Shown here: piece after piece, positions 4,085 through 62,747 of the stretch
Numbering within the stretch: the stretch's first letter is position 1
Layout of the letters: each line of letters begins with the position of its first letter
Position numbers and translations under genes: made by a program
Assembly (NCBI GenBank): GCA_944367495.1
Contig: CALVWP010000004.1
Location: 6,202-70,201 of the forward strand
Source: an uncultured Bacilli bacterium
GTDB lineage: Bacteria > Bacillota_I > Bacilli_A > RF39 > UBA660
Direction of reading: 5' to 3'
Length of the DNA stretch: 64,000 nucleotides
The notes under the pieces: generated by a model
The model's database searches: none
The model's input: only the letters and a program-made list of their open reading frames with translations
What the model was told of the DNA's origin: nothing

Positions 4085-5203
4085 ATGATAATAAAAACTC
4101 TTGAAATCAAAAATTTTCGAAACTACTCTTCCTTGCTTTTAAATCTATCTGATAAATTAAATATAATTTATGGACTTAATGGACAAGGAAAGACTAATTT
4201 GTTAGAAAGTATATATTTATTAGGTTTTACCACATCTCACCGCTCATTTACATCTGACAATTTAATCAAATCAGGTGAAGAAAAAGCTATTATTAAAGGT
4301 AAATTACAGAAAGATATTTCCTATAATTTAGAAATAAATCTAATGAAAACAAAAAAACAAGTAAAAATTGATGGCAAAATTCAAACAAAATTATCAAACT
4401 ACATTGAAAAAATGAATGTCATAATTTTTTCTTCTGAAGATTTAAATTTAATAAAAGGAAATCCAAATGAAAGAAGAAAATATTTTAATTTGGAATTATC
4501 ACAAATTTCACCCAATTATTATAGTGCTTTAAATGATTATAATAAACTTTTAAAATTGCGAAATGAATATTTAAAAGAATTAAATTTAAATATGCCTATC
4601 GATTTAAACTATTTTAATATTTTAACTGATTATTTAATAAATAAAAGTATTTTTATTTATCAAATGCGTAACAAATATGTGGAAAAGCTAAATAAAATCT
4701 GTCCACCTATCTTTGAAGAAATTGCCGGTATAAAAGGGTTTAATATAAAATATCATCCTTCTATAAATTTGGAAAATTTTGACAAAGAAACCATTAAAAA
4801 AACGTTAGAAAAAGCTTATAAAGATCATTTAGATAAAGAAATACGCTTTAAATCGACATTATATGGCCCTCACAGAGATGATTTTACTTTTGATATAGAT
4901 GATAACAACTTAAGAGAATTTGGCTCTCAGGGGCAGCAAAAAATGGCTATAATAGCTTTAAAATTATCTGAGATAGAAATTTTAAAAGATTTTAAAAGGA
5001 CAAATCCAATCATTTTATTAGATGACATCTTCAGTGATTTAGATAGTAATAAAAAAAACAATCTTTTAAAACATATAACAGGTGATATGCAAGTAATAAT
5101 TACAACAACTGATTTAGACAGCATTGATAAAAAACTCCTAACCACAGCTAAACTCATCCATATAGAAAATGGAAAAATCAAGGAAACAGAGGTGGAAAAA
5201 TGA
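4085..5203 (+). CDS. recF: DNA replication and repair protein RecF
   Basis: 372 aa. Walker A motif [12 protein letters not shown]. In the dnaN-recF-gyrB synteny. Confidence 0.93.
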
Positions 5204-7125
5204 ACGAAAACAATGAACACTACGATGTCTCCGATATACAAGTTTTAGAAGGCTTAGAAGCTGTTAGAAAAAGACCAGGAATGTATATTGGAACAACTGA
5301 TGTTAAAGGACTTCATCATTTAGTATGGGAAATCGTTGATAACAGTATTGATGAAGCCCTAGCGGGCTTTTGTGATGCGATTGAAATCGTTATCAATAAA
5401 GGTAATTCTATAACTGTAAAAGATAATGGTCGTGGAATTCCTGTGGGAATTCACCCTAAGACAGGCTTATCAACGGTTGAAACTGTTTATACTGTTCTCC
5501 ATGCCGGTGGTAAATTCGGTGGTGGCGGGTATAAAGTTTCTGGTGGACTCCACGGTGTTGGAGCATCTGTCGTTAATGCCTTATCTAGCTGGACTGTTGT
5601 AACAGTTTATCATGGTGGCCAAATCTATGAAGCCAAATTTAAAAATGGTGGACACATTGATCAAAAATTAACTGTTATTGGTGAGTGCGATCCAAATAGA
5701 ACTGGAACAACCGTTACTTTTAAACCAGACGCCGATATTTTTGATACAGATATTTTTGATTATGAAACATTAAAAGTCAGAACTAGAGAATTAGCTTTCT
5801 TAAATAGAGGCTTAAAATTAACTTTAAGAGATGACAGAGATGAAGAAGATACAACTGGAGAAACCTTTCATTATGAAGGTGGAATAAGTGAATATGTTAA
5901 ATATTTAAATAAAAATAAAACGCCAATTCAAAATGATATTATTCACCTAGAAGGTGAAGATGAAGGTGTTTTCTTCGAAGTTGCAATGCAGTACAATACT
6001 GGTTACACAAGTAATATTTATTCTTTTGTAAATAATATCAATACTCATGATGGTGGAACTCATGAAGAAGGAGTTAGAAGAGCTCTAACTAGAGTAATTA
6101 ATAGTTATGCCAGGAAAACAGGCATGTTAAAAGAAAAAGATGATTCATTAAGTGGTGACGATGTTAAAGAAGGCTTAACTATGATTGTTTCTTGTAAACA
6201 TCCAAATCCTCAATTTGAAGGTCAAACTAAGGGACGTTTAGGTAATTCTGAAGTTAGAAAACTAGCTGATAAAGTATTTTCAGAAGGTTTTGAAAGATAT
6301 TTATTAGAAAATCCTGACGAAGCTAAAATTATCATTGAAAAAAATATGACTGCCGCTCGTGCTAGAGTTGCTGCCAAAAAAGCTAGAGAATTAACTAGAA
6401 GAAAAAGTGATTTAGACGTTATAAATTTTGGTGGAAAACTAGTAGATTGTAAAGATAAAGATCCATCAAAATGTGAAATTTTCTTAGTCGAGGGAGATTC
6501 AGCTGGCGGGTCAGCTATAAAAGGTAGAGATTCCATGACTCAAGCTATTTTACCTCTTAGAGGAAAAATTTTAAATGTGGAAAAAGCTAGATTAGATAGA
6601 GCCCTATCTAATGAAGAAATAAGAACAATCATCACGGCTTTTGGTACTGGAATAGGTCAAGAATTTGACTTGAATAAACTAAGATATCATAAAATAATAA
6701 TCATGACCGATGCCGATGTTGATGGTTCACACATTAGAGTATTATTACTTACCCTATTTTATCGTTTCTTTAGACCTATTATTGAAGCTGGGCATGTCTA
6801 TGCCGCTCAGCCACCACTTTTCTGCATTAAACATGGAAAAACTATTAAATATGTCTTAAACGAAGAGGAAAGAGATTCATATCTAGCTTCTTTAAACCCA
6901 AATACTAAATATGATTTAATGCGTATGAAAGGTTTAGGTGAAATGGATGCTGAAGAATTAAATGAAACAACCATGGACATAAATACAAGAGTTCTTAGAA
7001 AAATCACACTAGACGATGTTATGGCAGCCGATGAAGCATTTTCAAAACTTATGGGAGAAGAAGTTGCACCAAGAAGAAAATTTATCGAAGAAAATGCTGT
7101 TTATGCTGAAACAATAGATGTATAG
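5200..7125 (+). CDS. gyrB: DNA gyrase subunit B
   Basis: 641 aa. GHKL ATPase and Toprim motifs. Overlaps the recF stop. Confidence 0.97.
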
Positions 7126-26311: not shown

Positions 26312-26836
26312 ATGAAAGTAGCAGGAATTATAAGAAGAATTGATGAACTTGGAAGAATCGTTATTCCTAAAGAAATAAGAAAAACTCTTCATATAAAAAA
26401 TGGTGAAAACTTAGAAATATATATTGAAAATGGAAATGTTGTTTTAAAAAAATATTCAGAATTAAAATCCTTTAAAGAATTAAGTGACACTATAGCTATC
26501 AGTTTAAATCAAATAACAAAATCAAACATTTTAATAAGTGATATGGACAATTTTATAAGCGCTGAAGGATCATTTAAGAAAAAATATTTAAATAAAGAAA
26601 TTAGTGAAGATATTTTAAAAATCATCAACAATCGCAAATCCGTTGTTATAAGCAATAAATCTTTAAACATAACAAAAGAAAATAAAGAAAAATCCAATAT
26701 CATAGTAAACCCAATTATATCTAATGGCGATGCCGTAGGATCAATATTAATCATAAATAAAAATGAAAATGTTGAAGGATATATAGAAAGTATTAATCTT
26801 GCCACTAACATTTTAGCCAAACATATTGAATCATAA
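26312..26836 (+). CDS. spoVT: Stage V sporulation protein T (AbrB-type N-terminal domain plus GAF domain)
   Basis: 174 aa. MKVAGIIRRIDELGRIVIPKEIRKTL is the AbrB/SpoVT swapped-hairpin motif. Its position after mfd matches B. subtilis. Confidence 0.85.
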   Translation: MKVAGIIRRIDELGRIVIPKEIRKTLHIKNGENLEIYIENGNVVLKKYSELKSFKELSDTIAISLNQITKSNILISDMDNFISAEGSFKKKYLNKEISEDILKIINNRKSVVISNKSLNITKENKEKSNIIVNPIISNGDAVGSILIINKNENVEGYIESINLATNILAKHIES

Positions 26837-26861: not shown

Positions 26862-27076
26862 TTAAATGCACTGAAAGAAAGAAAAGTAGGTAACTTTATA
26901 GAGAGTTTATGCTTGGTGGAAATAAACAAGGTAACTACTTCGAATGGCTCTGGAGCAGCCTAGCCGATATTTAAGCTAGGCCGGTTAAAACCGTTATATG
27001 TTTAAAGGTAAGCAAAGCTTATAAATTAAGGTGGTACCACGCTCATAAACGTCCTTATTCTAAGGATGTTTTTTTC
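26862..27076 (+). promoter_or_regulatory. T-box riboswitch leader (probable Met specificity) preceding dut-metG
   Basis: AGAGAG box, conserved T-box sequence AATTAAGGTGGTACCACG, and a terminator hairpin CGTCCTTATTCTAAGGATG + T8. AUG-containing candidate specifier sequences are present. The downstream gene is metG. Confidence 0.75.
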
Positions 27077-27095
27077 TATAAAAAAGGAGGATTTT

Positions 27096-27572
27096 ATGCG
27101 AAAATTTGAAAAAATATCTATGTCCGCTTTTACTAAAGAAACCGGATTAACCGAAAAAGAATATAATAATATAATTATGCCTCATCGAGCTACTGAAAAT
27201 AGTGCCGGCTACGACTTTCATCTTTTAGAAGATTTAAGTTTAAAACCGGGAGAAATCAAGAAAATTAAAACAGGAATAAAAGCTGCCATGAATAATAATG
27301 AAGTATTAATGATATATATCAGAAGTAGTTTAGGCTTTAAATATAATTTAAGATTATGTAACGGGACAGGCATTATTGATAGCGATTACTATAACAACGA
27401 AACAAATGAAGGACATATAGTCATAGCTATTCAAAATGAGGGAGAAAAAAACGTAGAATTAAAAGCAAATGATCGTTTTGTTCAAGGCATTTTCATGAAA
27501 TATTTAACTATCGATGACGAAGAACAAGTAAATAATGTTCGACAAGGTGGAATAGGAAGTACAAGGAGGTAA
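27096..27572 (+). CDS. dut: dUTP diphosphatase
   Basis: Motifs PHRATENSAGYDF and C-terminal RQGGIGSTRR. Start set at the ATG after an AAGGAGG RBS (the track starts at 27066). Confidence 0.85.
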   Translation: MRKFEKISMSAFTKETGLTEKEYNNIIMPHRATENSAGYDFHLLEDLSLKPGEIKKIKTGIKAAMNNNEVLMIYIRSSLGFKYNLRLCNGTGIIDSDYYNNETNEGHIVIAIQNEGEKNVELKANDRFVQGIFMKYLTIDDEEQVNNVRQGGIGSTRR

Positions 27573-27576
27573 TAAA

Positions 27577-29136
27577 ATGAAACCAAAATACTATATAACA
27601 ACATCTATTTTTTACGCATCAGCCAAACCTCATATAGGAAATACATATGAGGGAATATTAACTGATGCTATCGCCAGGTATAAAAGATTAATGGGCTATG
27701 ATGTGATTTTTACAACCGGAACAGATGAACACGGTGAAAAAGTTCAAAACAAAGCTAAAGAAGCTGGAAAAACACCGCAAGAATATGTTGACGAAATATC
27801 ATTAGAAGTAAGAAGAATCGATGATATCATGAATATCAGTTATGATAAATTTGTTAGAACAACTAATCCTCACCATAAAGAAATAGTTGCTAAAATATTT
27901 AAAAAACTATATGATAATGGTGATATTTATAAAGGAAAATATGAAGGATTATACTGCACGCCTTGCGAATCATTCTTTACCGAAAAAGAACTAGTAGACG
28001 GAAAATGTCCAGACTGTGGAAGAGAGGTTCATAAAACCAGTGAAGAAGCATATTTTTTAAAACTAAGTAAATACAACAAATGGCTTGAAGAATATATCGA
28101 ATCTCATCCAGATTTCATAATACCTGAAAGCCGAAAAAATGAAATAATGAATAACTTTATAAAAAAAGGTGTTGAAGATTTATGTATATCAAGAACGTCA
28201 TTTGATTGGGGAGTAAAAGTACCAATTGATGACAAACATATTATCTATGTTTGGTTAGATGCCCTAACAAACTATATAACATTTATTGGATATGACCCAG
28301 ATGAAAGCACAGAAGAATTCAAAAAATATTGGCCAGCTGATGTTCATATAATAGGAAAAGATATTTTAAGATTTCATACCATTTATTGGCCGGTAATATT
28401 AAAAGCATTAGACTTGCCAATGCCAAAACATATTTTTGGTCACCCTTGGGTTTTGGCTTCAAATAGTGATAAAATGAGCAAATCAAAAGGAAATGTTTTA
28501 TATGCTGACGATTTAGCCAATCTATTTGGAACTGATGCTATAAGATATTACTGTCTTCATGAAATTCCTTATGGCTATGATGGCAACATCAGTTATGACT
28601 TAATTATCGATAGAGTAAATTCTGATTTGGCTAACACCTTAGGAAACTTAGTCAATAGAACTATTAGTATGACTCATAAATACTTTAATGGTGAAGTATT
28701 TAAACCAACTAGTTTTGAAAGTATCGATAAAGATCTAATCGAAAATGCGAAAACCTTAGGTGATAGAATTGAAGAAAAAATGAATAAATTCAAAATAGCT
28801 GAAGCTATCGAAGAAATAATTGAACTATGCCGTAAAAGTAATAAATATATTGATGAAACAACTCCTTGGATTCTAGCTAAAGACGAAACAAAACAAGAAA
28901 GATTAAAAACCGTTTTATATAATTTACTCGAAACAATAAGAATATCAGCCGTTTATTTAACTGCATTTTTACCAGAAACAGCCGATAAAATATTTAAACA
29001 ATTAAATACACAAAACCGTTTTATAGAATCTACAAAAAATTTTAAAGGTATGGATTCTGGCATTATTTTAAACAAACCTGAAATATTATTTGCCAGAGTT
29101 GATAAAGATGAATTTTCTAAAAAATTACTTTCTTAA
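27577..29136 (+). CDS. metG: Methionyl-tRNA synthetase (short form without C-terminal tRNA-binding domain)
   Basis: 519 aa. HIGN motif (YASAKPHIGNTYE), KMSKS loop KMSKSKGNV, and zinc knuckle CTPCES...CPDCG. Confidence 0.95.
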   Translation: MKPKYYITTSIFYASAKPHIGNTYEGILTDAIARYKRLMGYDVIFTTGTDEHGEKVQNKAKEAGKTPQEYVDEISLEVRRIDDIMNISYDKFVRTTNPHHKEIVAKIFKKLYDNGDIYKGKYEGLYCTPCESFFTEKELVDGKCPDCGREVHKTSEEAYFLKLSKYNKWLEEYIESHPDFIIPESRKNEIMNNFIKKGVEDLCISRTSFDWGVKVPIDDKHIIYVWLDALTNYITFIGYDPDESTEEFKKYWPADVHIIGKDILRFHTIYWPVILKALDLPMPKHIFGHPWVLASNSDKMSKSKGNVLYADDLANLFGTDAIRYYCLHEIPYGYDGNISYDLIIDRVNSDLANTLGNLVNRTISMTHKYFNGEVFKPTSFESIDKDLIENAKTLGDRIEEKMNKFKIAEAIEEIIELCRKSNKYIDETTPWILAKDETKQERLKTVLYNLLETIRISAVYLTAFLPETADKIFKQLNTQNRFIESTKNFKGMDSGIILNKPEILFARVDKDEFSKKLLS

Positions 29137-30258: not shown

Positions 30259-30963
30259 ATGAAAAAATATCACCTGCGATATTTAGGCGTTTCATTACTA
30301 GTAAGCATCCTAACTATCACAGGGTTAATAACATCTGGTAACCTAATTTCAGAAAAGAAAATTGAAGTAAAAAATTTAAACCAGACTAAAGACTCAGTGG
30401 CCTTAACGAAAGTCATTGAGTATGATACAGTCGAAACTTATAACAGCAAAATACCTACTGGCGTCACTATAACAAAAGAGAAGGGGCATACTGGACTTGC
30501 TTATATCGATGAAGAAAACAATGAAATAATCATCGAAAGTCCAAAAAATGCAAAAATCGAAATTGGAACTGGAGACGAAGCTGATTATGTAGGTAAAATG
30601 ACAGGTTATGGTGCCGACTGCGCTGGGTGTTCTGGAAATGGAACGCTAGCTTGTAAAACCAAAAACGGAAGTTATCATAGTTTAATCAAAAATGGTACAA
30701 CTTATAACGACGACGAATATGGTGAAGTTAGAATAATAGCTGCTGCTTTAGATAAATTTCCGTGCGGAACAATTATCAAAGTAGAAAATCCAAATTTAGG
30801 CACCTTTAATGCTATTGTATTAGACACTGGTGGAGCAATGAAAAATGCTTGGGAAAATGGTATTGTCCATATGGATTTGGCTTATGTAACCGAAACCGAT
30901 CCAGCAATTCATTTAACTACAAGTTCTAATGTAAAATATAGTGTTCAAAGATGGGGTTATTAA
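30259..30963 (+). CDS. 3D-domain cell-wall-binding protein (YabE-like, RlpA/MltA-type double-psi beta-barrel)
   Basis: 234 aa. Signal anchor, 3D-domain motif GYGADCAGCSGNG...LDTGGA. Lies after tatD as yabE does in Bacillus. Confidence 0.75.
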   Translation: MKKYHLRYLGVSLLVSILTITGLITSGNLISEKKIEVKNLNQTKDSVALTKVIEYDTVETYNSKIPTGVTITKEKGHTGLAYIDEENNEIIIESPKNAKIEIGTGDEADYVGKMTGYGADCAGCSGNGTLACKTKNGSYHSLIKNGTTYNDDEYGEVRIIAAALDKFPCGTIIKVENPNLGTFNAIVLDTGGAMKNAWENGIVHMDLAYVTETDPAIHLTTSSNVKYSVQRWGY

Positions 30964-31081
30964 ACCTCATTTTTTTGTTTTAAAAAGCAATAACCTCTAG
31001 TTATAAAATTATAAAAAATATATATTTTATTTTTCAAGGGTTGCTAGATAAAATATGATTTAACAAAGGAGGGTTTAATAA

Positions 31082-32587
31082 ATGAAATTAGTAAATCCGA
31101 CTATTAAATACAAAGAAACATATTTAAATTTAATTAAAGCCGCACAAAAAAACGGCGATATCAATGAAATGGGTAATGCCTACCGCGAAAATGAAAATTT
31201 TGATGATATGCTTAAACGTTTAAAAGATCGCGCTAGAGGAAAAAACATTTCAAAACTTGATGTTCCATCATCGATGAAATGGGTAATTGAAAACAATGAA
31301 GTAGTTGGCACCATTGATTTGAGGCACATTTTAAACAAAAGTTATTTTGAAAGACTTGGTCACGTTGCTTATTACATTCATCCTAAAAAAAGAAAAAAAG
31401 GTTATGCCACTAAAGCTTTAAACTTAGCCATTAAGTGGTATAAAAAAATGCCAATTAATAAAATTTTAATCACCTGTTATAGTGATAATGAAGCTTCTAA
31501 AAAAGTTATTTTAAATAATGGTGGTGTTTTAGAAAAAACAGTTCAAGATAAACAAAGTGGTAAAACTATCAATCGTTATTTAATAGATATAAGTGATAAA
31601 ATTTTTCCAAGAGTTGCTTGGCTTACGACAAATAGAAGTTGTAATTGTAAATGTGCATGGTGCTATGCTAATGACTATAAAGGAAAAAAAGCTACAATGG
31701 ACTACAATTTAGCCAAAAAATATATAAAAGAATTACCAAAAATTGGTGTTAGAAAAGTTATTTTAATTGGTGGAGAGCCTACTATATATAAAGAAATTAC
31801 TAAAATTATAAAAAAGCTTGCCGATGAGAGAATCACTGTTTCTATGGCCAGTAATGGAATAAAGTTTTCGGATTATAAATTTGCCGAATCATTAGTCTCA
31901 GCAGGACTTAAAAACGTAAATATTTCTTTAAAAGGAACTAATGAAGAAGAATATTTAAAAAGCACTCTAGTATATGGTTTAAAAAAAGCTATTAAAGGTT
32001 ATCACAATTTAAAAAAATTAGGAGCAAACGTCAGTCTTTCATATGTCCTTTGTACAAACGATAAAACCAAAATAGATGAATTGTTAAATTTAATTGAAAA
32101 AAACAAATTAAATAACATTTCTTTCCAATTTTATAAACCATCAATTTTTACAAATGATTATAATACACCTACAATCGATGATTTGGTATCGATTTGTTCA
32201 TATGTATATGATAAATTTGAAAATAGAAATATTAATTACTCTATCGAAATGTCATTACCGCTTTGTCATTTGCCAGATGATTTACTAAATAATTTAATTA
32301 AGAAAAATCGAATTTCTACTTGTTGTCATATTAGTAAAGGTAAAGGCTTAGTTTTCGATACTAATTTTAATATTCTACCTTGTAATCATTTCTTAAACAT
32401 TTCTTTAAATACCAATCCAATAAAACCAAATCAAATAGTTGATTTTTGGAACTCCGCAATACCAAGTGAATTTAGAAAAAAAGTTAATACCTACCCTAAT
32501 GATAAATGCCGTAAATGTGATAAATGGAAAATTTGTGGTGGTGGCTGTTTCTTAAGATTAATTTCACCAAAAAACGAAAGGGGGTGA
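31082..32587 (+). CDS. Fusion protein: N-terminal GNAT N-acetyltransferase, radical SAM core and C-terminal SPASM domain (putative peptide-modifying maturase)
   Basis: 501 aa. GNAT motifs (RHILNKSYFERLGHVAYYIHPKKRKKGYATKAL). The rSAM CX3CX2C is CNCKCAWC, followed by a GGEPT SAM-binding motif. The SPASM motif CX2CX5CX3C is CRKCDKWKICGGGC, with additional upstream Cys. Confidence 0.85.
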   Translation: MKLVNPTIKYKETYLNLIKAAQKNGDINEMGNAYRENENFDDMLKRLKDRARGKNISKLDVPSSMKWVIENNEVVGTIDLRHILNKSYFERLGHVAYYIHPKKRKKGYATKALNLAIKWYKKMPINKILITCYSDNEASKKVILNNGGVLEKTVQDKQSGKTINRYLIDISDKIFPRVAWLTTNRSCNCKCAWCYANDYKGKKATMDYNLAKKYIKELPKIGVRKVILIGGEPTIYKEITKIIKKLADERITVSMASNGIKFSDYKFAESLVSAGLKNVNISLKGTNEEEYLKSTLVYGLKKAIKGYHNLKKLGANVSLSYVLCTNDKTKIDELLNLIEKNKLNNISFQFYKPSIFTNDYNTPTIDDLVSICSYVYDKFENRNINYSIEMSLPLCHLPDDLLNNLIKKNRISTCCHISKGKGLVFDTNFNILPCNHFLNISLNTNPIKPNQIVDFWNSAIPSEFRKKVNTYPNDKCRKCDKWKICGGGCFLRLISPKNERG

Positions 32588-32591
32588 AAAT

Positions 32592-32738
32592 ATGGACGCT
32601 TTAAAATTTGTTAATCAATTTTATAAAAGTACAGATGTTGAAGCCGATTTAACACAAGGAATCAAAAGCATATCAGCCAATGACTTAGATTGTAACTGTG
32701 TAGATGGTGACTGCTCTACTGAAACTTATGAATATTAA
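32592..32738 (+). CDS. Candidate RiPP precursor peptide (48 aa) with a Cys/Asp-rich C-terminal core
   Basis: ATG 4 nt after the maturase stop, with an AAAGGGGG RBS. Sequence MDALKFVNQFYKSTDVEADLTQGIKSISANDLDCNCVDGDCSTETYEY. A terminator follows. Shorter than 60 aa, so absent from the ORF track. Confidence 0.6.
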   Translation: MDALKFVNQFYKSTDVEADLTQGIKSISANDLDCNCVDGDCSTETYEY

Positions 32739-32755
32739 ATAAAATTGATTTTTAA

Positions 32756-32779
32756 GGACTGTTATTCAGCAGTCTTTTT
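32756..32779 (+). terminator. Rho-independent terminator after the precursor peptide gene
   Basis: GACTG...CAGTC hairpin followed by TTTTT. Confidence 0.5.
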
Positions 32780-32836
32780 AAATTTTTAAAAAAAGGGAAA
32801 TAAATGATATAATTAATTCAAACGGAGGTTTTGTAT

Positions 32837-33670
32837 ATGGAATATTCTCCAAAAAAAATAAAAGAGCAGTTAAATCAAACAAATTTTAATTTTAAAAAAA
32901 AGTTTGGACAAAACTTTATTGTTGATAAAAACGTTATCCACAGTATAATTTCCAAATCAGCAATTGATAAAGACACTTTAGTAATTGAAATAGGACCGGG
33001 AGCCGGCTCATTAACGACCGAATTAGATAAAGTAGCAGGCCATGTTTTAGCATACGAAATTGATGTTACTTTAAAACCTATTTTGGAAAAGCAAAATTTA
33101 ACTAATACTACTATAATTTATGAAGATTTTCTAAAAAGAAACATTGAAAAAGATTTAAAAAAATATAATTATAAAAAAGCATACGTCGTGGCCAATCTGC
33201 CCTACTATATCACCACCCCAATTATTATTAAATTAATAGAAGATAAATTAAATATCGATAAAATAGTTGTTATGGTTCAAAAAGAAGTTGGCAATAGATT
33301 TAAAGCCAAACCAAACACCAAAGAATATAATTCCCTTTCAATCTTTTTGAACTATTACTATACTGTGGAAAAACTTTTAGATGTTAGTAAAAACGTCTTT
33401 ATTCCAAAACCCAATGTCGATAGCATAGTAGTATCATTTGTAAAAAAAGAAACCAAAATCAAAGTAGATAATGAACAAATTTTCTTTAAATTAGTTAAGG
33501 ATTCTTTTAAACAAAAAAGAAAAACTTTAAAAAATAATTTAAAAGACTATAACCTAGAAATAATTGAAGAAGTTTTAAAAAAACATAATCTTGATTTAAA
33601 TGTAAGAGCTGAAGCACTACCAATCGAAATATTTGCTGAAATAGCTAATAATCTAAATAAAAAAATGTAA
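32837..33670 (+). CDS. rsmA: 16S rRNA (adenine1518/1519-N6)-dimethyltransferase
   Basis: FKKKFGQNFI motif, SAM-binding EIGPGAG. Start set to the ATG 8 nt after a GGAGG RBS (the track starts at a TTG at 32831). Confidence 0.93.
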   Translation: MEYSPKKIKEQLNQTNFNFKKKFGQNFIVDKNVIHSIISKSAIDKDTLVIEIGPGAGSLTTELDKVAGHVLAYEIDVTLKPILEKQNLTNTTIIYEDFLKRNIEKDLKKYNYKKAYVVANLPYYITTPIIIKLIEDKLNIDKIVVMVQKEVGNRFKAKPNTKEYNSLSIFLNYYYTVEKLLDVSKNVFIPKPNVDSIVVSFVKKETKIKVDNEQIFFKLVKDSFKQKRKTLKNNLKDYNLEIIEEVLKKHNLDLNVRAEALPIEIFAEIANNLNKKM

Positions 33671-33746: not shown

Positions 33747-34373
33747 ATGAATATTGAAAAAAATGAAACACAAATTGATAAACCTACAAACTTAGAAATA
33801 TATAATGATGGTCAACTATATTTAATCGTTGACTTAGAAAGCACAAATATGAATGAATTAATTGAAAGCCTAAAACAAACATATGATGAAAATACTATAA
33901 ATAATGCTTTAATATATAATTTAAATCAAATAGCTGAAAGATTAAATTATATTGACGAAGTAGCTTTAGGAAAAACAGGATTGATTGCTACAAAAGGTAG
34001 CGATGACACATTACATTTTAATAAAAAATCAAAAGAAGACGTTACTGAGAATTTTAATATTCAACCTATAAATAAAAATGAATATGTTATACAACCAAAC
34101 CCTCAAGGTGGCTATGATTTGCTTTTAGGTGGAGTTGGATTAGGTGCTCACGAAATAATTGATTTAATAAATGAATTAAAGCTTAAAGGAATTGTTCCTG
34201 TAAGCGCTGAAGTAACTCCACATATTAATGGAGAGATAGATATGGCAAAGATAAATGAAAATGCTCAAAGATTTACCGACGAAAGATTAGAAAATAATTA
34301 TGACATGTCAGTAAACTCATATTGCGAGATAGGATTAAACCCATCAGAAGAAGATCATCACAAAACAAGATAA
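33747..34373 (+). CDS. Hypothetical protein (208 aa)
   Basis: Intact ORF with a Gly-rich segment GGYDLLLGGVGLGAH. No family recognised. Confidence 0.4.
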   Translation: MNIEKNETQIDKPTNLEIYNDGQLYLIVDLESTNMNELIESLKQTYDENTINNALIYNLNQIAERLNYIDEVALGKTGLIATKGSDDTLHFNKKSKEDVTENFNIQPINKNEYVIQPNPQGGYDLLLGGVGLGAHEIIDLINELKLKGIVPVSAEVTPHINGEIDMAKINENAQRFTDERLENNYDMSVNSYCEIGLNPSEEDHHKTR

Positions 34374-34461: not shown

Positions 34462-35127
34462 ATGATTAATAAAAAATGGGATGAAATTTTAAAAGATGAA
34501 TTTCAAAAACCCTACTTTAAAAAATTAGGTGTTTTTGTTAAAAATGAATATGGGAAAAAGATTGTTTACCCTGAATATAAAAACATTTTTAATGCTTTAA
34601 GATTTACAGATTATGATGAAGTAAAAGTAGTTATATTAGGTCAAGATCCATATCATGGTCCAAAAGAGGCCCACGGACTATCATTTTCCGTAGAAGAAGG
34701 AGTCAAAAGACCGCCATCATTAGATAATATTTTTAAAGAACTAAAAAATGATTTAGGAGTAACTAGAAATAACAACAATTTAACCGATTGGGCTAAACAA
34801 GGAGTTTTCTTACTTAACTCTATTATGACAGTCGTCAAAGATACTCCCCTATCACATAAAGATAAAGGATGGGAAACATTTACTGATAATTTAATTAAAC
34901 TATTAAATCAAAGAGAAAAACCAATTGTCTTCATTTTGTGGGGAAGTTATGCTAGAAGTAAAAAAGTTTTAATTACTAATCCTAACCATTATATTGTGGA
35001 AAGTCATCACCCATCTCCCCTATCTGCTCATCGAGGTTTTTTTGGAAGTAAGCCATTTTCCAAAACCAACAACTTTTTAGTTAGCCATGGAATTACACCA
35101 ATCAAATGGGGTGATGAAGATGAATGA
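34462..35127 (+). CDS. ung: Uracil-DNA glycosylase (family 1)
   Basis: 221 aa. Motifs VVILGQDPYHGP and HPSPLS. Confidence 0.93.
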   Translation: MINKKWDEILKDEFQKPYFKKLGVFVKNEYGKKIVYPEYKNIFNALRFTDYDEVKVVILGQDPYHGPKEAHGLSFSVEEGVKRPPSLDNIFKELKNDLGVTRNNNNLTDWAKQGVFLLNSIMTVVKDTPLSHKDKGWETFTDNLIKLLNQREKPIVFILWGSYARSKKVLITNPNHYIVESHHPSPLSAHRGFFGSKPFSKTNNFLVSHGITPIKWGDEDE

Positions 35128-36448
35128 TATTTTAGAAAAATTAAAAAAAGAAATTTCAAATAATTCCACCATTATCATTGCTACATCAGGCGGTCCAGAT
35201 TCTATGGTGTTATTAAATTTACTTTCCACAGTAAAAAAAGAAAAAATTTTAAAATTAGTATGTGCTCATGTCAATCACAAATTAAGAAAAGAAAGTGATA
35301 GCGAAGCTGAAATGGTCAAAAAATACTGTGAAAAAGAAAAAATAACCTTTGAATATATTACTATTGATGAATACAAAGGAAATACTGAAAATTATGCCAG
35401 AGAAAAGCGTTATGATTTTTTTGAACAATTAATAAAAAAATATAATGCTCCCTACCTATTAACAGCTCATCATGGTGATGATTTAATCGAGACAATTATT
35501 ATGCGGTTAATAAGAGGTTCATCTTTAAAAGGTTATTCTGGTTTTAGTGAAGTAACAGAAAAACACAATTATAAAATTATAAGACCATTGATCACCAAAA
35601 CCAAAAGTGATTTATTAAAATATGCTGACGATAATCATATTCCTTATGCTTTAGACAAAACTAATGATAGTGATGTTTTTACAAGAAATCGTATTAGAAA
35701 ATACATTTTACCAAAACTAAAAGACGAAAACAAAAATATACATTTAAAATTTTTAGAATTTAGTAAAACTTTAAATGAAACTGAAGACTATTTTAATCAA
35801 ATATTAGAAAATATCATTCCAAACATTTATCAAAACAAGAAAATAAATGTTCAACTATTTTTAAACCAGCACACCCAAATCCAAAAAAAGATTATTCATT
35901 ATATTTTAAATAAAACATATCAAAATAATATCAGCGCAATAACTGATAAACATGTTAGTAACATTTTAAATGTTTTAAAAAATAACAAACCAAATCAAAA
36001 AATCAATCTTCCTTATAATAAAGTTTTTATAAAATCATATAATAATGCTTGGTTAGAAGAAAGCGAAAAAGTAAAAAAATACGATTTTATTTTAAAAGAA
36101 AAATTAGACTTACCAAACAATTATATAATAGAAATTATTGATAAAATAGATAATAATTCTAATTATATTACTAAGTTAAACTCTAAGGATTTAAAAATGC
36201 CTATTCATGTAAGAAACAGAAAAAAAGGTGATAAATTAACCTTAAAAGGTTCAAATAATACAAAAAAAATTAAAGACATATTCATAAACGAAAAAATACC
36301 ATTAAATGAAAGACAAACATGGCCAATTGTTACTGATAATAATGATGAAATTATTTGGCTCCCTGGCTTAAAAAAAACTAAATTTGATATAGAAAATAAC
36401 CAAAATTATGATATAATAATTAGGTATCGAAAGAAAGGAAGTTTATAA
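35120..36448 (+). CDS. tilS: tRNA(Ile)-lysidine synthetase
   Basis: PP-loop SGGPDSMVL. Start at the ATG 6 nt after a GGGGTGA RBS. Overlaps the ung stop. tilS-ftsH synteny. Confidence 0.9.
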   Translation: MNDILEKLKKEISNNSTIIIATSGGPDSMVLLNLLSTVKKEKILKLVCAHVNHKLRKESDSEAEMVKKYCEKEKITFEYITIDEYKGNTENYAREKRYDFFEQLIKKYNAPYLLTAHHGDDLIETIIMRLIRGSSLKGYSGFSEVTEKHNYKIIRPLITKTKSDLLKYADDNHIPYALDKTNDSDVFTRNRIRKYILPKLKDENKNIHLKFLEFSKTLNETEDYFNQILENIIPNIYQNKKINVQLFLNQHTQIQKKIIHYILNKTYQNNISAITDKHVSNILNVLKNNKPNQKINLPYNKVFIKSYNNAWLEESEKVKKYDFILKEKLDLPNNYIIEIIDKIDNNSNYITKLNSKDLKMPIHVRNRKKGDKLTLKGSNNTKKIKDIFINEKIPLNERQTWPIVTDNNDEIIWLPGLKKTKFDIENNQNYDIIIRYRKKGSL

Positions 36449-61535: not shown

Positions 61536-62105
61536 TTATTTTAAACTTTCATTTTTTATTTTCAAATAATAATCTCTTAGTTCCTTAAATCTTTGATAAT
61601 GAACGATTTCCCTTTCTCTTAAAAAAGATAGTGGACCTAAAATATCAGGATCATCAGTTAAATCCATTAAGTGCTCATAAGTAGCTCTTGCCCTTTGTTC
61701 AGCGCCCATATCACTTTCAATATCAGCAATATAATCACCAGCAACCTTAATATGTGTCATGTTAAATGGATTACCAAAAGCATCTGATGGGAATAAATCC
61801 ATGCCAAACTGCGCATACTGACTGTCTAAACCAGCCTCTTTTAACTCTTCCTTAGTTGCTCCTTTCATAAGTTGATAAAGCATAGCAGATATAATTTCTA
61901 CATGGGCCAGCTCTTCTGTACCAATATCAGTAAGTAATGCTTTTCCCCTATCATCAGGCATAATATATCTTTGGTCTAAATATTGCCATGCAGCTGCGAG
62001 CTCTCCAGCTGGACCGCCATATTGCGTCAAAATACATTTTGCCATCTTTAAATTTTTTTTCTTAATATTTACAGGATACTGTAATTTTTTTTCATATTTC
62101 CACAT
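61536..62105 (-). CDS. cotJC: Spore coat protein CotJC (manganese-catalase-like ferritin fold)
   Basis: MWKYEKKLQYPVNIKKKNLKMAKCILTQYGGPAGELAA closely matches B. subtilis CotJC. GGAGG RBS. Confidence 0.9.
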   Translation of the reverse strand: MWKYEKKLQYPVNIKKKNLKMAKCILTQYGGPAGELAAAWQYLDQRYIMPDDRGKALLTDIGTEELAHVEIISAMLYQLMKGATKEELKEAGLDSQYAQFGMDLFPSDAFGNPFNMTHIKVAGDYIADIESDMGAEQRARATYEHLMDLTDDPDILGPLSFLREREIVHYQRFKELRDYYLKIKNESLK

Positions 62106-62114
62106 ATAAACCTC

Positions 62115-62639
62115 CTACTTATTCTCCCATGGCCAAGGTGTATTATTCCAAGTCCAAGGATACCCTTCATTAGAATTTACAAAAAGCGGTCCAAATTTAC
62201 TTTCATATTCATTTTTTGCGGTCCACGCATCCGCACTATACTGATTGTATAAATCAATCATCGCTCTATCGTTTGGATGAGTATCTAAATATAGATTAAT
62301 ATCATGAGCTGCAAAAGAATAAGCATCTACCTTAGTTAAAAGTTCCGCTTGTTCATTCATCCCTTTTACATCATAAGGTCTAGCAAGTTTATATTGATTA
62401 AATAAATCTGGAAACATATTACCTCTGATAAAACCATTATAAACATCATATAATTGATTTGGATTGCTTTTGCCATCATATCCGCACTTATTAAAATTCA
62501 TATTGTCCCCTGCTTGTTTACTAAGCTTCTTACTAAGTTCAATGTTTTTAACCGGTTTTTTAGCTTGCGGTATTGCTTCTGGATAAGTCATCATAAACTC
62601 ATTTGGAAACATATTTCCCATATTCACATAATTATTCAT
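62115..62639 (-). CDS. cotJB: Translationally fused CotJA-CotJB spore coat protein
   Basis: N-terminal half carries CotJA motifs (PNQLY...GFIRGNMFPDLFNQY...PY). C-terminal half carries CotJB motifs (NLYLDTHPND, FGPL, PWTW...PWPWE). There is no stop codon between them. Start at the ATG after an AAGGGGAAG RBS. Confidence 0.75.
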   Translation of the reverse strand: MNNYVNMGNMFPNEFMMTYPEAIPQAKKPVKNIELSKKLSKQAGDNMNFNKCGYDGKSNPNQLYDVYNGFIRGNMFPDLFNQYKLARPYDVKGMNEQAELLTKVDAYSFAAHDINLYLDTHPNDRAMIDLYNQYSADAWTAKNEYESKFGPLFVNSNEGYPWTWNNTPWPWENK

Positions 62640-62747
62640 TGTTCTTCCCCTTTCGTGATATATTATGAAATAAACTTTCCAAAGTATAGGCAAAAATATT
62701 GTATTTATAAAAAAACTTTAGTATCATAAATTATTGAGGTGAAAAGT

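Follow-up and report, generated by a model that had tools for sequence, protein, structure and literature searches.

A putative two-gene peptide-modification cassette with a fused GNAT, radical SAM and SPASM enzyme in an uncultured Bacilli bacterium

What does an enzyme that joins an acetyltransferase to a radical S-adenosylmethionine (SAM) core and a SPASM domain do between two housekeeping genes? The question is raised by a 501-amino-acid (aa) open reading frame (ORF) at 31082..32587 (+ strand, ATG start) of a 64,000-nucleotide (nt) stretch of an uncultured Bacilli bacterium (RF39, UBA660; GenBank assembly GCA_944367495.1, contig CALVWP010000004.1, positions 6,202 to 70,201). We call this whole stretch the window; coordinates refer to it unless a related locus (L number) is named, and homologous proteins carry P numbers. 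An earlier note, made by a model from the DNA letters, had read the ORF as a fusion of GNAT, radical SAM and SPASM modules, inserted with an accessory cassette between a 3D-domain yabE-like gene and ksgA. We find that the enzyme gene is followed by the gene of a 48-aa peptide and that homologous enzymes are almost always paired with homologous peptides. The reading that we favour, with a probability of roughly 0.6, is an autonomous two-gene cassette of the type that yields peptides made by the ribosome and modified after translation (RiPPs), in which the fused enzyme would mature the 48-aa peptide by cross-linking and then acetylation.

Domains and conserved motifs of the fusion enzyme

Hidden Markov model (HMM) searches, profile-to-PDB alignment and a confident structure model agree that the single ORF holds all three modules. 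The N-terminal GNAT domain (aa 1-175; 31082..31606, +) is RimJ/RimL-like: Pfam Acetyltransf_3 (PF13302) matched aa 50-147 with 47.7 bits against a cut-off of 25.4 (E = 3e-12), and Acetyltransf_1 matched as well (E = 1.5e-9). Besides an HMM score above cut-off, the domain has the GNAT fold and the Q/RxxGxG/A acetyl-CoA motif of the family, here R104-K-K-G107-Y-A109 (31391-31408, +). The radical SAM core follows (aa 176-380; 31607..32221, +), with Pfam Radical_SAM (PF04055) covering aa 184-337 of the window protein at 82.8 bits (cut-off, 29.5; E = 4e-23). A SPASM-type auxiliary-cluster domain (aa 381-501; 32222..32584, +) completes the protein, and TIGR04085 (SPASM) matched the C-terminal 117 aa with 39.6 bits (cut-off, 27; E = 5e-10). 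The earlier note had staked its reading on these HMM thresholds, and both Radical_SAM and TIGR04085 pass them.

The cysteine motifs quoted in that note were confirmed, and an alignment of 110 homologues shows them to be conserved. Of the CX3CX2C motif (C187, C191, C194; 31640-31663, +), C191 and C194 are invariant in this alignment, and C187 is kept in at least 90% of the sequences; G230, G231 and E232 of the GGEP motif (aa 230-233) are also invariant. C189, the middle cysteine of the quoted CNCKC, is not conserved. In the SPASM region, C395, C415 and C434 are invariant in the same alignment, and C414, C476, C479, C485 and C489 are at least 90% conserved, which makes eight conserved cysteines in all (395, 414, 415, 434, 476, 479, 485 and 489). 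A 25-sequence alignment gave C476, C479 and C485 as invariant and C489 as at least 90% conserved. The claim of a full SPASM motif held in part: CX2CX5CX3C (C476, C479, C485, C489; 32507-32548, +) is present and TIGR04085 is passed, but Pfam SPASM (PF13186) scored 16.1 bits, under its cut-off of 21.5, and the last canonical cysteine is missing. This cysteine would lie about 18 residues past CX3C; the protein stops 12 residues beyond C489 with no further cysteine, and no conserved one is seen downstream of C489 in the 25 aligned homologues. Two homologues do pass PF13186, P0024 with 25.3 bits and P0075 with 26.2 bits. The eight C-terminal cysteines are thus arranged unlike those of anSME, and two auxiliary clusters are still plausible because C395, C414, C415 and C434 are conserved upstream.

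Built from 25 homologues, a sequence profile aligned end to end with SuiB (PDB 5v1q, E = 1.7e-19) and anSME, through the CX2CX5CX3C motif. The AlphaFold2 model built from 110 homologues reached a mean predicted local distance difference test score (pLDDT) of 93.1 and a predicted template modelling score (pTM) of 0.88, the latter suggesting a fixed arrangement of the domains, and the top Foldseek match of this model was again SuiB. The best full-length PDB matches are the peptide-modifying SPASM enzymes SuiB, anSME, ChlB, SkfB and CteB, with PqqE also among the best sequence or structure matches; the ChlB structure (PDB 9gm3) was solved together with the leader of its precursor. No specific family cut-off was approached among the best 25 of the 75 NCBIfam matches of the enzyme. 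A RiPP recognition element (RRE) was looked for with Pfam, RRE-Finder not being used, and no PqqD/RRE match was found in the enzyme at E <= 1; RRE families were likewise missing from the called neighbour genes of the homologue loci examined. The short relatives, of 335 aa, begin at the first radical SAM strand and have no N-terminal domain.

A peptide family encoded beside the enzymes

The enzyme stop codon (TGA, 32585-32587) is separated by a 4-nt gap from the ATG at 32592 of the precursor-peptide gene (32592..32738, +). Its 48-aa product consists of MDALKFVNQFYKSTDVEADLTQGI (leader) followed by KSISANDLDCNCVDGDCSTETYEY (core). The leader spans approximately aa 1-24 (32592-32663, +) and the Cys/Asp-rich core approximately aa 25-48 (32664-32735, +), the latter with the stretch DLDCNCVDGDCSTETYEY and its three cysteines. 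Gene calls on 21 public contigs include exactly this peptide. When the 48-aa sequence was used in a word-indexed search, only four close relatives came back, none of them named, and Pfam and NCBIfam scans of the family peptides at E <= 10 gave zero matches.

To define the family, a leader HMM made from the first 32 residues of 18 peptides was run on all small ORFs of about 100 loci. It retrieved the cassette peptides and essentially nothing else, every one of them adjacent to an enzyme gene and on the same strand; the window peptide matched with E = 1.7e-10. An adjacent homologous peptide is carried by approximately 53 of the 57 loci whose enzyme is at least 36% identical, a count that comprises the leader-HMM matches and three peptides evident by eye (L014, L033 and L099). 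Homologues that never occur near small peptide genes had been named in advance as the finding that would speak against a peptide maturase; one homologous peptide family is instead almost always adjacent. Each of the fused loci L001, L004, L010-L019 and L092 has a 48-54-aa ORF 0-60 nt downstream. Among the fused and short-form loci examined, the peptide ORF lies on the same strand, usually 0-100 nt downstream of the enzyme and in two cases upstream, and the stand-alone enzymes of Clostridia, of the candidate phyla radiation (CPR) and of other groups are also accompanied by homologous peptides.

The leaders share the consensus ..LL..Y.GT.I.AP.A.G[VIL]. The cores are composed of 17.9% Cys, 17.7% Asp, 10% Ser and 8.5% Asn, contain CxC in 35 of 39 cases, and are hypervariable, both in length and in the number of repeats, next to a leader motif that is retained. 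Examples range from the window stretch given above to three CHCSSDDC repeats, CDCDCDCECDCDCD and CPCKCVCQCDCVCK. A conserved leader, a variable core and an adjacent putative maturase, found together across lineages, are the anatomy of a RiPP precursor system. Within the genus of the window, the core is under purifying selection: between the window and L011, its 19 codons show 6 synonymous changes and 0 non-synonymous ones, against 12 non-synonymous changes in the leader. Compared with L010-L012, the peptide has a conserved core, and its reading frame is intact. Fused-type cores end in an aromatic-acidic tail (e.g., YEY, PW or YES). Tails after the last cysteine of the type CST..YEY or CSTPW are typical of GNAT-linked cassettes, a pattern from a small sample with L025 as an exception, on which we do not rely. 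As a separate observation, L007 (4497-7511), and likewise L008, L009 and L039, carries two tandem enzyme-peptide pairs, one with a SEYCQ-repeat core and the other with CDNDCNCNCSDCDC; a third Cys-rich ORF, of 40 aa, is found at this type of tandem locus.

How common is the fused enzyme? In a search of 5.8 billion proteins we found about 27 clusters of full-length GNAT-fused proteins at 50-84% identity, together with many radical SAM/SPASM-only proteins of 335 aa at 40-55% identity. An exhaustive HMMER scan of 1.84 billion representatives clustered at 50% identity gave 180 clusters at E <= 1e-30, with one intact (P0019) and one degenerate (P0056) fused form among them. Among GTDB species genomes, those with the fused form are gut 'uncultured Bacilli' metagenome-assembled genomes (MAGs) and Clostridium sp. 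CAG:594 and CAG:710; one further contig with it (L019) is labelled Agathobacter sp. The short form is found in Clostridia, Lachnospiraceae, Mollicutes-like MAGs, several CPR phyla and DPANN archaea. Where relatives bear public names at all, these are 'predicted protein' or 'radical SAM protein'. The GNAT-fused form is a rare member of a widespread, undescribed family of putative peptide-modifying systems, the majority of whose enzymes have 335 aa and neither GNAT nor RRE. In a neighbour-joining tree of the radical SAM parts, which is crude and carries no support values, the fused proteins form one clade, suggesting that the fusion has a single origin; the GNAT-less P0028, which retains the peptide and sits after a rel gene, is nested within it.

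Cassette boundaries, genomic placement and decay

Both genes have a ribosome-binding site, AAAGGAGGG at 8 nt 5' of the enzyme ATG (31065..31073, +, read from the sequence) and, for the peptide gene, AAAGGGGG within the last enzyme codons (32577..32584, +). Terminator-like hairpins with T-runs lie on either side. The upstream hairpin (30947..30974, +) spans the stop (30963) with which the 3D-domain gene ends and has a 12-pair stem followed by TTGTTTT, with a minimum free energy (MFE) of -13.2 kcal/mol and z = -3.15 relative to shuffled sequences. The downstream hairpin (32754..32777, +), just past the peptide stop, has an MFE of -13.3 kcal/mol and z = -3.88, and 0 of 200 shuffles fold as well. 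Promoter-like matches were seen 5' of the enzyme gene (TTTTCA, 17 nt, TATGAT; 31031..31059, +; 9 of 12 consensus positions) and past the downstream hairpin (TTTAAA, 17 nt, TATAAT with TG; 32785..32813, +), where transcription would restart for ksgA; both are consensus matches only and, in AT-rich DNA of 28% G+C, weak evidence. Because of the two ribosome-binding sites, the 4-nt gap and the flanking hairpins on both sides, the enzyme and peptide genes look like a separate transcription unit, approximately 31031-32787.

The unit lies between the 3D-domain yabE-like gene (30259-30963) and ksgA (32831-33670), as had been claimed, with tatD also upstream of it and tilS downstream of ksgA in the window. 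In the closest relatives, L010 and L012, the cassette occupies the same interval; that of L010 is separated from yabE by genes for a VanY-like peptidase, a two-component system and a LysR regulator. The cassette of L018 is found elsewhere, after a yabG-like gene, and the 3D gene of that locus directly abuts ksgA. The view of an accessory cassette placed into a housekeeping operon is supported by this direct junction, by the hairpins on both sides, by the promoter-like site of its own and by the varying loci. The proposal that it sits where Bacillus carries rnmV fared less well: the yabE-ksgA interval is right, but displacement of rnmV is not supported, there being no rnmV at the 3D-ksgA junction of L018 and no rnmV-like ORF among the eight in the window that come close to rnmV in size (ten scanned), in which only RecR has a Toprim domain.

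Elsewhere the neighbours differ. A rel gene ends 6-12 bp 5' of the cassette in three separate lineages, represented by L004 (rel at 4543-5988), L092 (3555-4994) and L099 (2553-3989). It encodes about 480 aa with HD, RelA_SpoT and TGS domains, and its position suggests that the cassette is co-transcribed there with a stringent-response gene. At L001, the cassette stands beside a NUDIX gene and two more GNATs, and at L023 about 0.8 kb, with one ORF in it, separates the peptide gene from an ABC ATPase gene downstream. Small HExxH proteins are encoded 3' of the peptide gene at some CPR and Clostridia loci and are 31% identical to a Peptidase_MA_2 gene found 2.2 kb downstream of a fused cassette; they are candidate leader peptidases. 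The genes concerned lie at 1707-2084 of L046, 1675-2043 of L050, 6218-6592 of L036, about 6270-6620 of L029 and L031, and 9852-10487 of L004. The plasmid and phage collections gave only stand-alone GNAT matches at 31-35% identity, and the cassette was not found on known plasmids or phages.

Decay of the cassette is common. Compared with L092 (3309-6705), L095-L097 (4001-4862) have a Trp-to-stop change at the junction of the GNAT and radical SAM parts and a deletion of about 1 kb, across which the radical SAM N-terminus is joined to the last part of the peptide gene; they also lack the rel gene upstream. This decayed cassette is present in most contigs of one gut species, and its 182-aa product is listed in 138 collection blocks. 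L020 is truncated, and L044 and L068 are frameshifted. The cassette is evidently accessory, located at different sites by lineage and often lost. A different state was observed at L098 (4001-5560; P0037, with P0056 similar), which encodes a full-length fused protein that has lost CX3CX2C and several SPASM cysteines and kept the GNAT motif, and no peptide gene lies downstream of P0037.

Other features of the window stand apart from the cassette. A T-box leader (Rfam RF00230, 120.7 bits; 26862-27059, +) precedes a dUTPase-like ORF (27066-27572), and the MetRS gene (27577-29136) starts 5 nt after it, so that a T-box before dut-metS forms an unusual operon head. A 208-aa ORF after ksgA (33747-34373, +) has no significant Pfam or NCBIfam match, and tblastn found no copy of it after ksgA in L012 or in L010, where only about 1 kb of sequence is available. 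The uracil-DNA glycosylase ORF (34462-35127, +) and the tilS-like ORF (35087-36448, +) overlap by 41 nt, and the true tilS start may lie further downstream. Genes for a CotJC-like Mn-catalase and CotJB (61536-62693, -) and an SpoVT/AbrB-like gene (26312-26836) indicate a spore-forming lineage.

Proposed maturation, alternatives and known systems

In the reading that we favour, the substrate of the fused enzyme would be the 48-aa product of 32592-32738. Its leader of about 24 aa would be bound directly by the radical SAM/SPASM body, because no RRE was found and the 335-aa relatives, which have no N-terminal domain, use the same leader. The C187/C191/C194 cluster would cleave SAM to a 5'-deoxyadenosyl radical, and this radical would abstract a hydrogen in the C-terminal core. 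With two auxiliary clusters held by the eight conserved cysteines, the enzyme would then install intramolecular cross-links, most likely thioethers that connect the three cysteines to Asp/Asn carbons. Such thioethers are favoured because only Cys and Asp/Asn are common to all cores and because PapB, QhpD and NxxcB are precedents for Cys-Asp/Asn thioether chemistry. Finally, the fused RimJ/RimL-like GNAT would acetylate a peptide amine from acetyl-CoA, the alpha-amino terminus being the likeliest target. Domain identities, cofactor-motif conservation, the pairing of enzyme and peptide genes across lineages, the leader/core anatomy, the changing location of the cassette and its linkage to the GNAT in three arrangements are observations; we infer that the peptide is modified at all, how and where it is cross-linked, what is acetylated and which biological role it has.

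The link between the GNAT and the cassette is seen in three arrangements of the same three parts. Besides the fusion, L023, which lies just outside the fused clade, has separate genes of the same GNAT subfamily in the order radical SAM, GNAT, peptide, and L044, a distant Clostridia locus, has the order radical SAM, peptide, GNAT, with the GNAT frame split by a frameshift. This Rosetta-stone argument supports a shared function. Among the fused proteins, the GNAT is at least as conserved as the radical SAM part (82.9% versus 69.8% for L012), and the RxxG[YIF]A acetyl-CoA motif is kept. The nearest GNAT structures are the N-alpha-acetyltransferases RimJ and RimL, and MccE. N-acetylation of the peptide is proposed because these relatives acetylate alpha-amino groups.

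Several observations weigh against this account. The earlier expectation of a sacti- or ranthipeptide-type maturase stood as far as a radical SAM/SPASM enzyme next to a peptide gene, but the specific thioether-maturase models are all far under cut-off: the enzyme scored 46.8 bits against the PapB model NF047865 (cut-off, 340), and is not a member of that family, 16.4 bits for its C-terminal part against the SCIFF maturase model TIGR03974 (cut-off, 425) and 13.2 bits against the QhpD model (cut-off, 453). No exporter, protease or immunity gene lies within the window, and none of the HExxH candidate peptidases, which leaves leader removal, export and the free core N-terminus needed for acetylation unaccounted for. 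The window-type core holds C-X3-D (C34-D38, C36-D40) and D-x-x-C (D31-C34, D33-C36, D38-C41) spacings, but a uniform Cys-to-acceptor spacing (CX3D or [DN]xxC) was not found across the family, and we therefore assign no bonds; some CPR cores are nearly free of Asp. The GNAT module, moreover, is promiscuous. It occurs as a stand-alone 176-aa protein (P0157) and, at L090 (2142-3224) and L091 (1633-2715), fused to an unrelated C-terminal domain of about 185 aa (P0090, P0097 and P0158), in each case 75-80% identical to window aa 1-175. The partner domain has no Pfam match, and there is no Cys-rich peptide near that locus.

Such promiscuity speaks for a rival reading, in which the radical SAM/SPASM part would mature the peptide and the GNAT would act elsewhere, in self-protection of the kind provided by MccE in producers of microcin C, or in an unrelated process, or would serve as a non-catalytic docking domain in place of an RRE. 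MccE is among the closest GNAT structures. The GNAT also outlives the radical SAM part, its motifs being intact where the latter is dead (P0037, P0056) or deleted (L095-L097), and the GNAT-less enzymes of L025, L036 and L099 are paired with nearly identical cores, from which we conclude that the GNAT is not required for the core chemistry. On the other hand, three independent arrangements keep this GNAT subfamily in the cassette, its conserved acetyl-CoA motif speaks against a purely structural role, and a docking domain would be unneeded where the 335-aa relatives recognize the same leader without one. We regard a GNAT without part in peptide maturation as rather unlikely. A somewhat stronger case, though still a doubtful one, can be made for a RiPP system with other chemistry, such as C-C or C-O links to the Tyr/Trp tail, epimerization or cysteine oxidation, whose product would be an intracellular metal-binding or redox peptide and not a secreted antibiotic. 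The best matches include non-thioether enzymes (SuiB with its Lys-Trp link, ChlB, anSME with cysteine oxidation, and PqqE), and the lack of exporter, protease and immunity genes in the window fits an intracellular peptide, as does retention of the family in reduced CPR and DPANN genomes. The acidic, CxC-rich cores resemble metal-binding sequences, and aromatic-acidic tails close the fused-type cores. Yet Cys and Asp/Asn are the sole core features common to the whole family, and SPASM enzymes with Cys-rich substrates usually form thioethers (AlbA, CteB, PapB and QhpD). The cassette is also dispensable, as the majority of strains in one species carry it in decayed form; this agrees better with an accessory product than with a housekeeping cofactor.

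Two further explanations would deny the locus a peptide product, and both are very improbable. One takes the enzyme as an Elp3-like RNA- or protein-modifying enzyme of the ksgA/tilS neighbourhood with an incidental small ORF beside it. The position between the tatD/yabE-like genes and ksgA, with tilS downstream, and the joining of radical SAM and GNAT in Elp3 would suit such an enzyme; the domain order, however, is opposite to that of Elp3, a SPASM domain is present, and the Elp3 model is absent among the Pfam matches and the best 25 of 75 NCBIfam matches. Terminator-like hairpins set the cassette apart from its neighbours, and the core of the peptide is under purifying selection. We rejected this housekeeping reading, as the flanking genes vary by lineage while the peptide partner is constant. 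The other takes the window copy as a decaying, non-functional remnant, as the decay described above (nonsense mutation and deletion in L095-L097, dead motifs in P0037 and P0056, truncation, frameshifts) is common in the family. The window ORF nevertheless has its full length, and all conserved cysteines, GGEP and the GNAT motif are in place; the peptide, too, is intact and has a conserved core, and both ribosome-binding sites are strong.

Returning to the cross-linking and acetylating cassette that we favour, the short-enzyme family around it may be a new RiPP class. More specifically, and quite tentatively, the 335-aa RRE-less SPASM enzymes with their Y.GT.I.AP.A.GV-leader, CxC/Asp-rich peptides could form an unrecognized class spread over Clostridia, gut Bacilli, CPR and DPANN, with a CxC/Asp cross-link chemistry unlike that of sacti- and ranthipeptides, and the window system would be its only bifunctional form, which both cross-links and acetylates. 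A passage of an RRE-based compendium names a corresponding blind spot, namely that radical SAM enzymes without an RRE may conceal further RiPP enzymes (PMC10288494). Large surveys have leaned on the RRE; this family is RRE-less, has no curated model and extends over about 180 clusters at 50% identity into CPR and DPANN. Pairs of radical SAM/SPASM enzymes and small peptides are a main source of novel chemistry on peptides. With the fused form, a unit of 1.7 kb (31031-32787) that is compact and can be cloned is available for work on the chemistry of the family and on RRE-free leader recognition, and it can show whether a primary maturase and a tailoring acetyltransferase operate as one protein. 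The fused, rSAM-GNAT-peptide and rSAM-peptide-GNAT arrangements (rSAM, radical SAM) are ready-made natural controls.

That a fused GNAT of this kind is not a described architecture, as the earlier note had stated, holds as an argument from absence: there is no curated family, database names are uninformative, and in the literature searched we found no description of a GNAT-radical SAM/SPASM fusion or of the CxC/Asp peptide family, and nothing relevant on radical SAM RiPPs of Patescibacteria or on ChlB/ChlA. The well-known single chain that joins radical SAM with a lysine acetyltransferase (KAT)/GNAT domain is Elp3, which functions in tRNA wobble-uridine modification. In Elp3, the radical SAM domain comes first and the GNAT last, there is no SPASM domain, the substrate is tRNA and no partner peptide is involved; the order GNAT, radical SAM, SPASM confirmed here is the reverse, as had been pointed out. 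Other GNATs, namely RimJ/RimL, MccE and RiPP tailoring acetyltransferases such as that of a lasso peptide (PDB 9iy3), are approached with scores far below equivalog cut-offs (28.8 versus 184), and unlike them the window GNAT is covalently joined to the primary maturase.

Among radical SAM/SPASM enzymes, the best PDB profile match, SuiB of the streptide system, was aligned from CX3CX2C through CX2CX5CX3C at only 18-20% identity. SuiB carries an N-terminal RRE where the window enzyme has its GNAT, and its Lys-Trp C-C chemistry and substrate have no counterpart in the Cys/Asp core. In anSME (PDB 4k36) the 7/8-Cys SPASM pattern is complete, with the last downstream cysteine that the window enzyme lacks, and anSME oxidizes Cys/Ser in sulfatases without a dedicated small peptide. 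GeoRSP (TIGR04303) gave the best end-to-end NCBIfam alignment among the best 25 of 75 matches (aa 182-493 against 10-310 of 325) and belongs to the same short, RRE-less length class; at 85 bits against a cut-off of 400, the window enzyme is not a member. The stand-alone relatives, at 335 aa and RRE-less, are also shorter than SCIFF maturases such as CteB, of about 450 aa. The SCIFF maturase was absent from the best 25 NCBIfam matches of the whole enzyme, and the SCIFF peptide model TIGR03973 was unmatched at E <= 10. Compared with ranthipeptide systems, the gene order here is enzyme then peptide, the precursor family matches no Pfam or NCBIfam model, and the maturase bears an extra N-terminal GNAT. 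The closest parallels are PapB (freyrasin), CteB/Tte1186 (SCIFF) and QhpD, in which, as is proposed for the window, a radical SAM/SPASM enzyme acts on a small, Cys-rich, Asp/Thr-containing peptide encoded next to it. PapB and QhpD are known to form Cys-to-Asp/Glu thioethers, and SCIFF provides the example of a minimal two-gene cassette without an obvious exporter. By analogy, and not by membership in any of these classes, the window cassette would work like a sactipeptide, ranthipeptide or SCIFF cassette.

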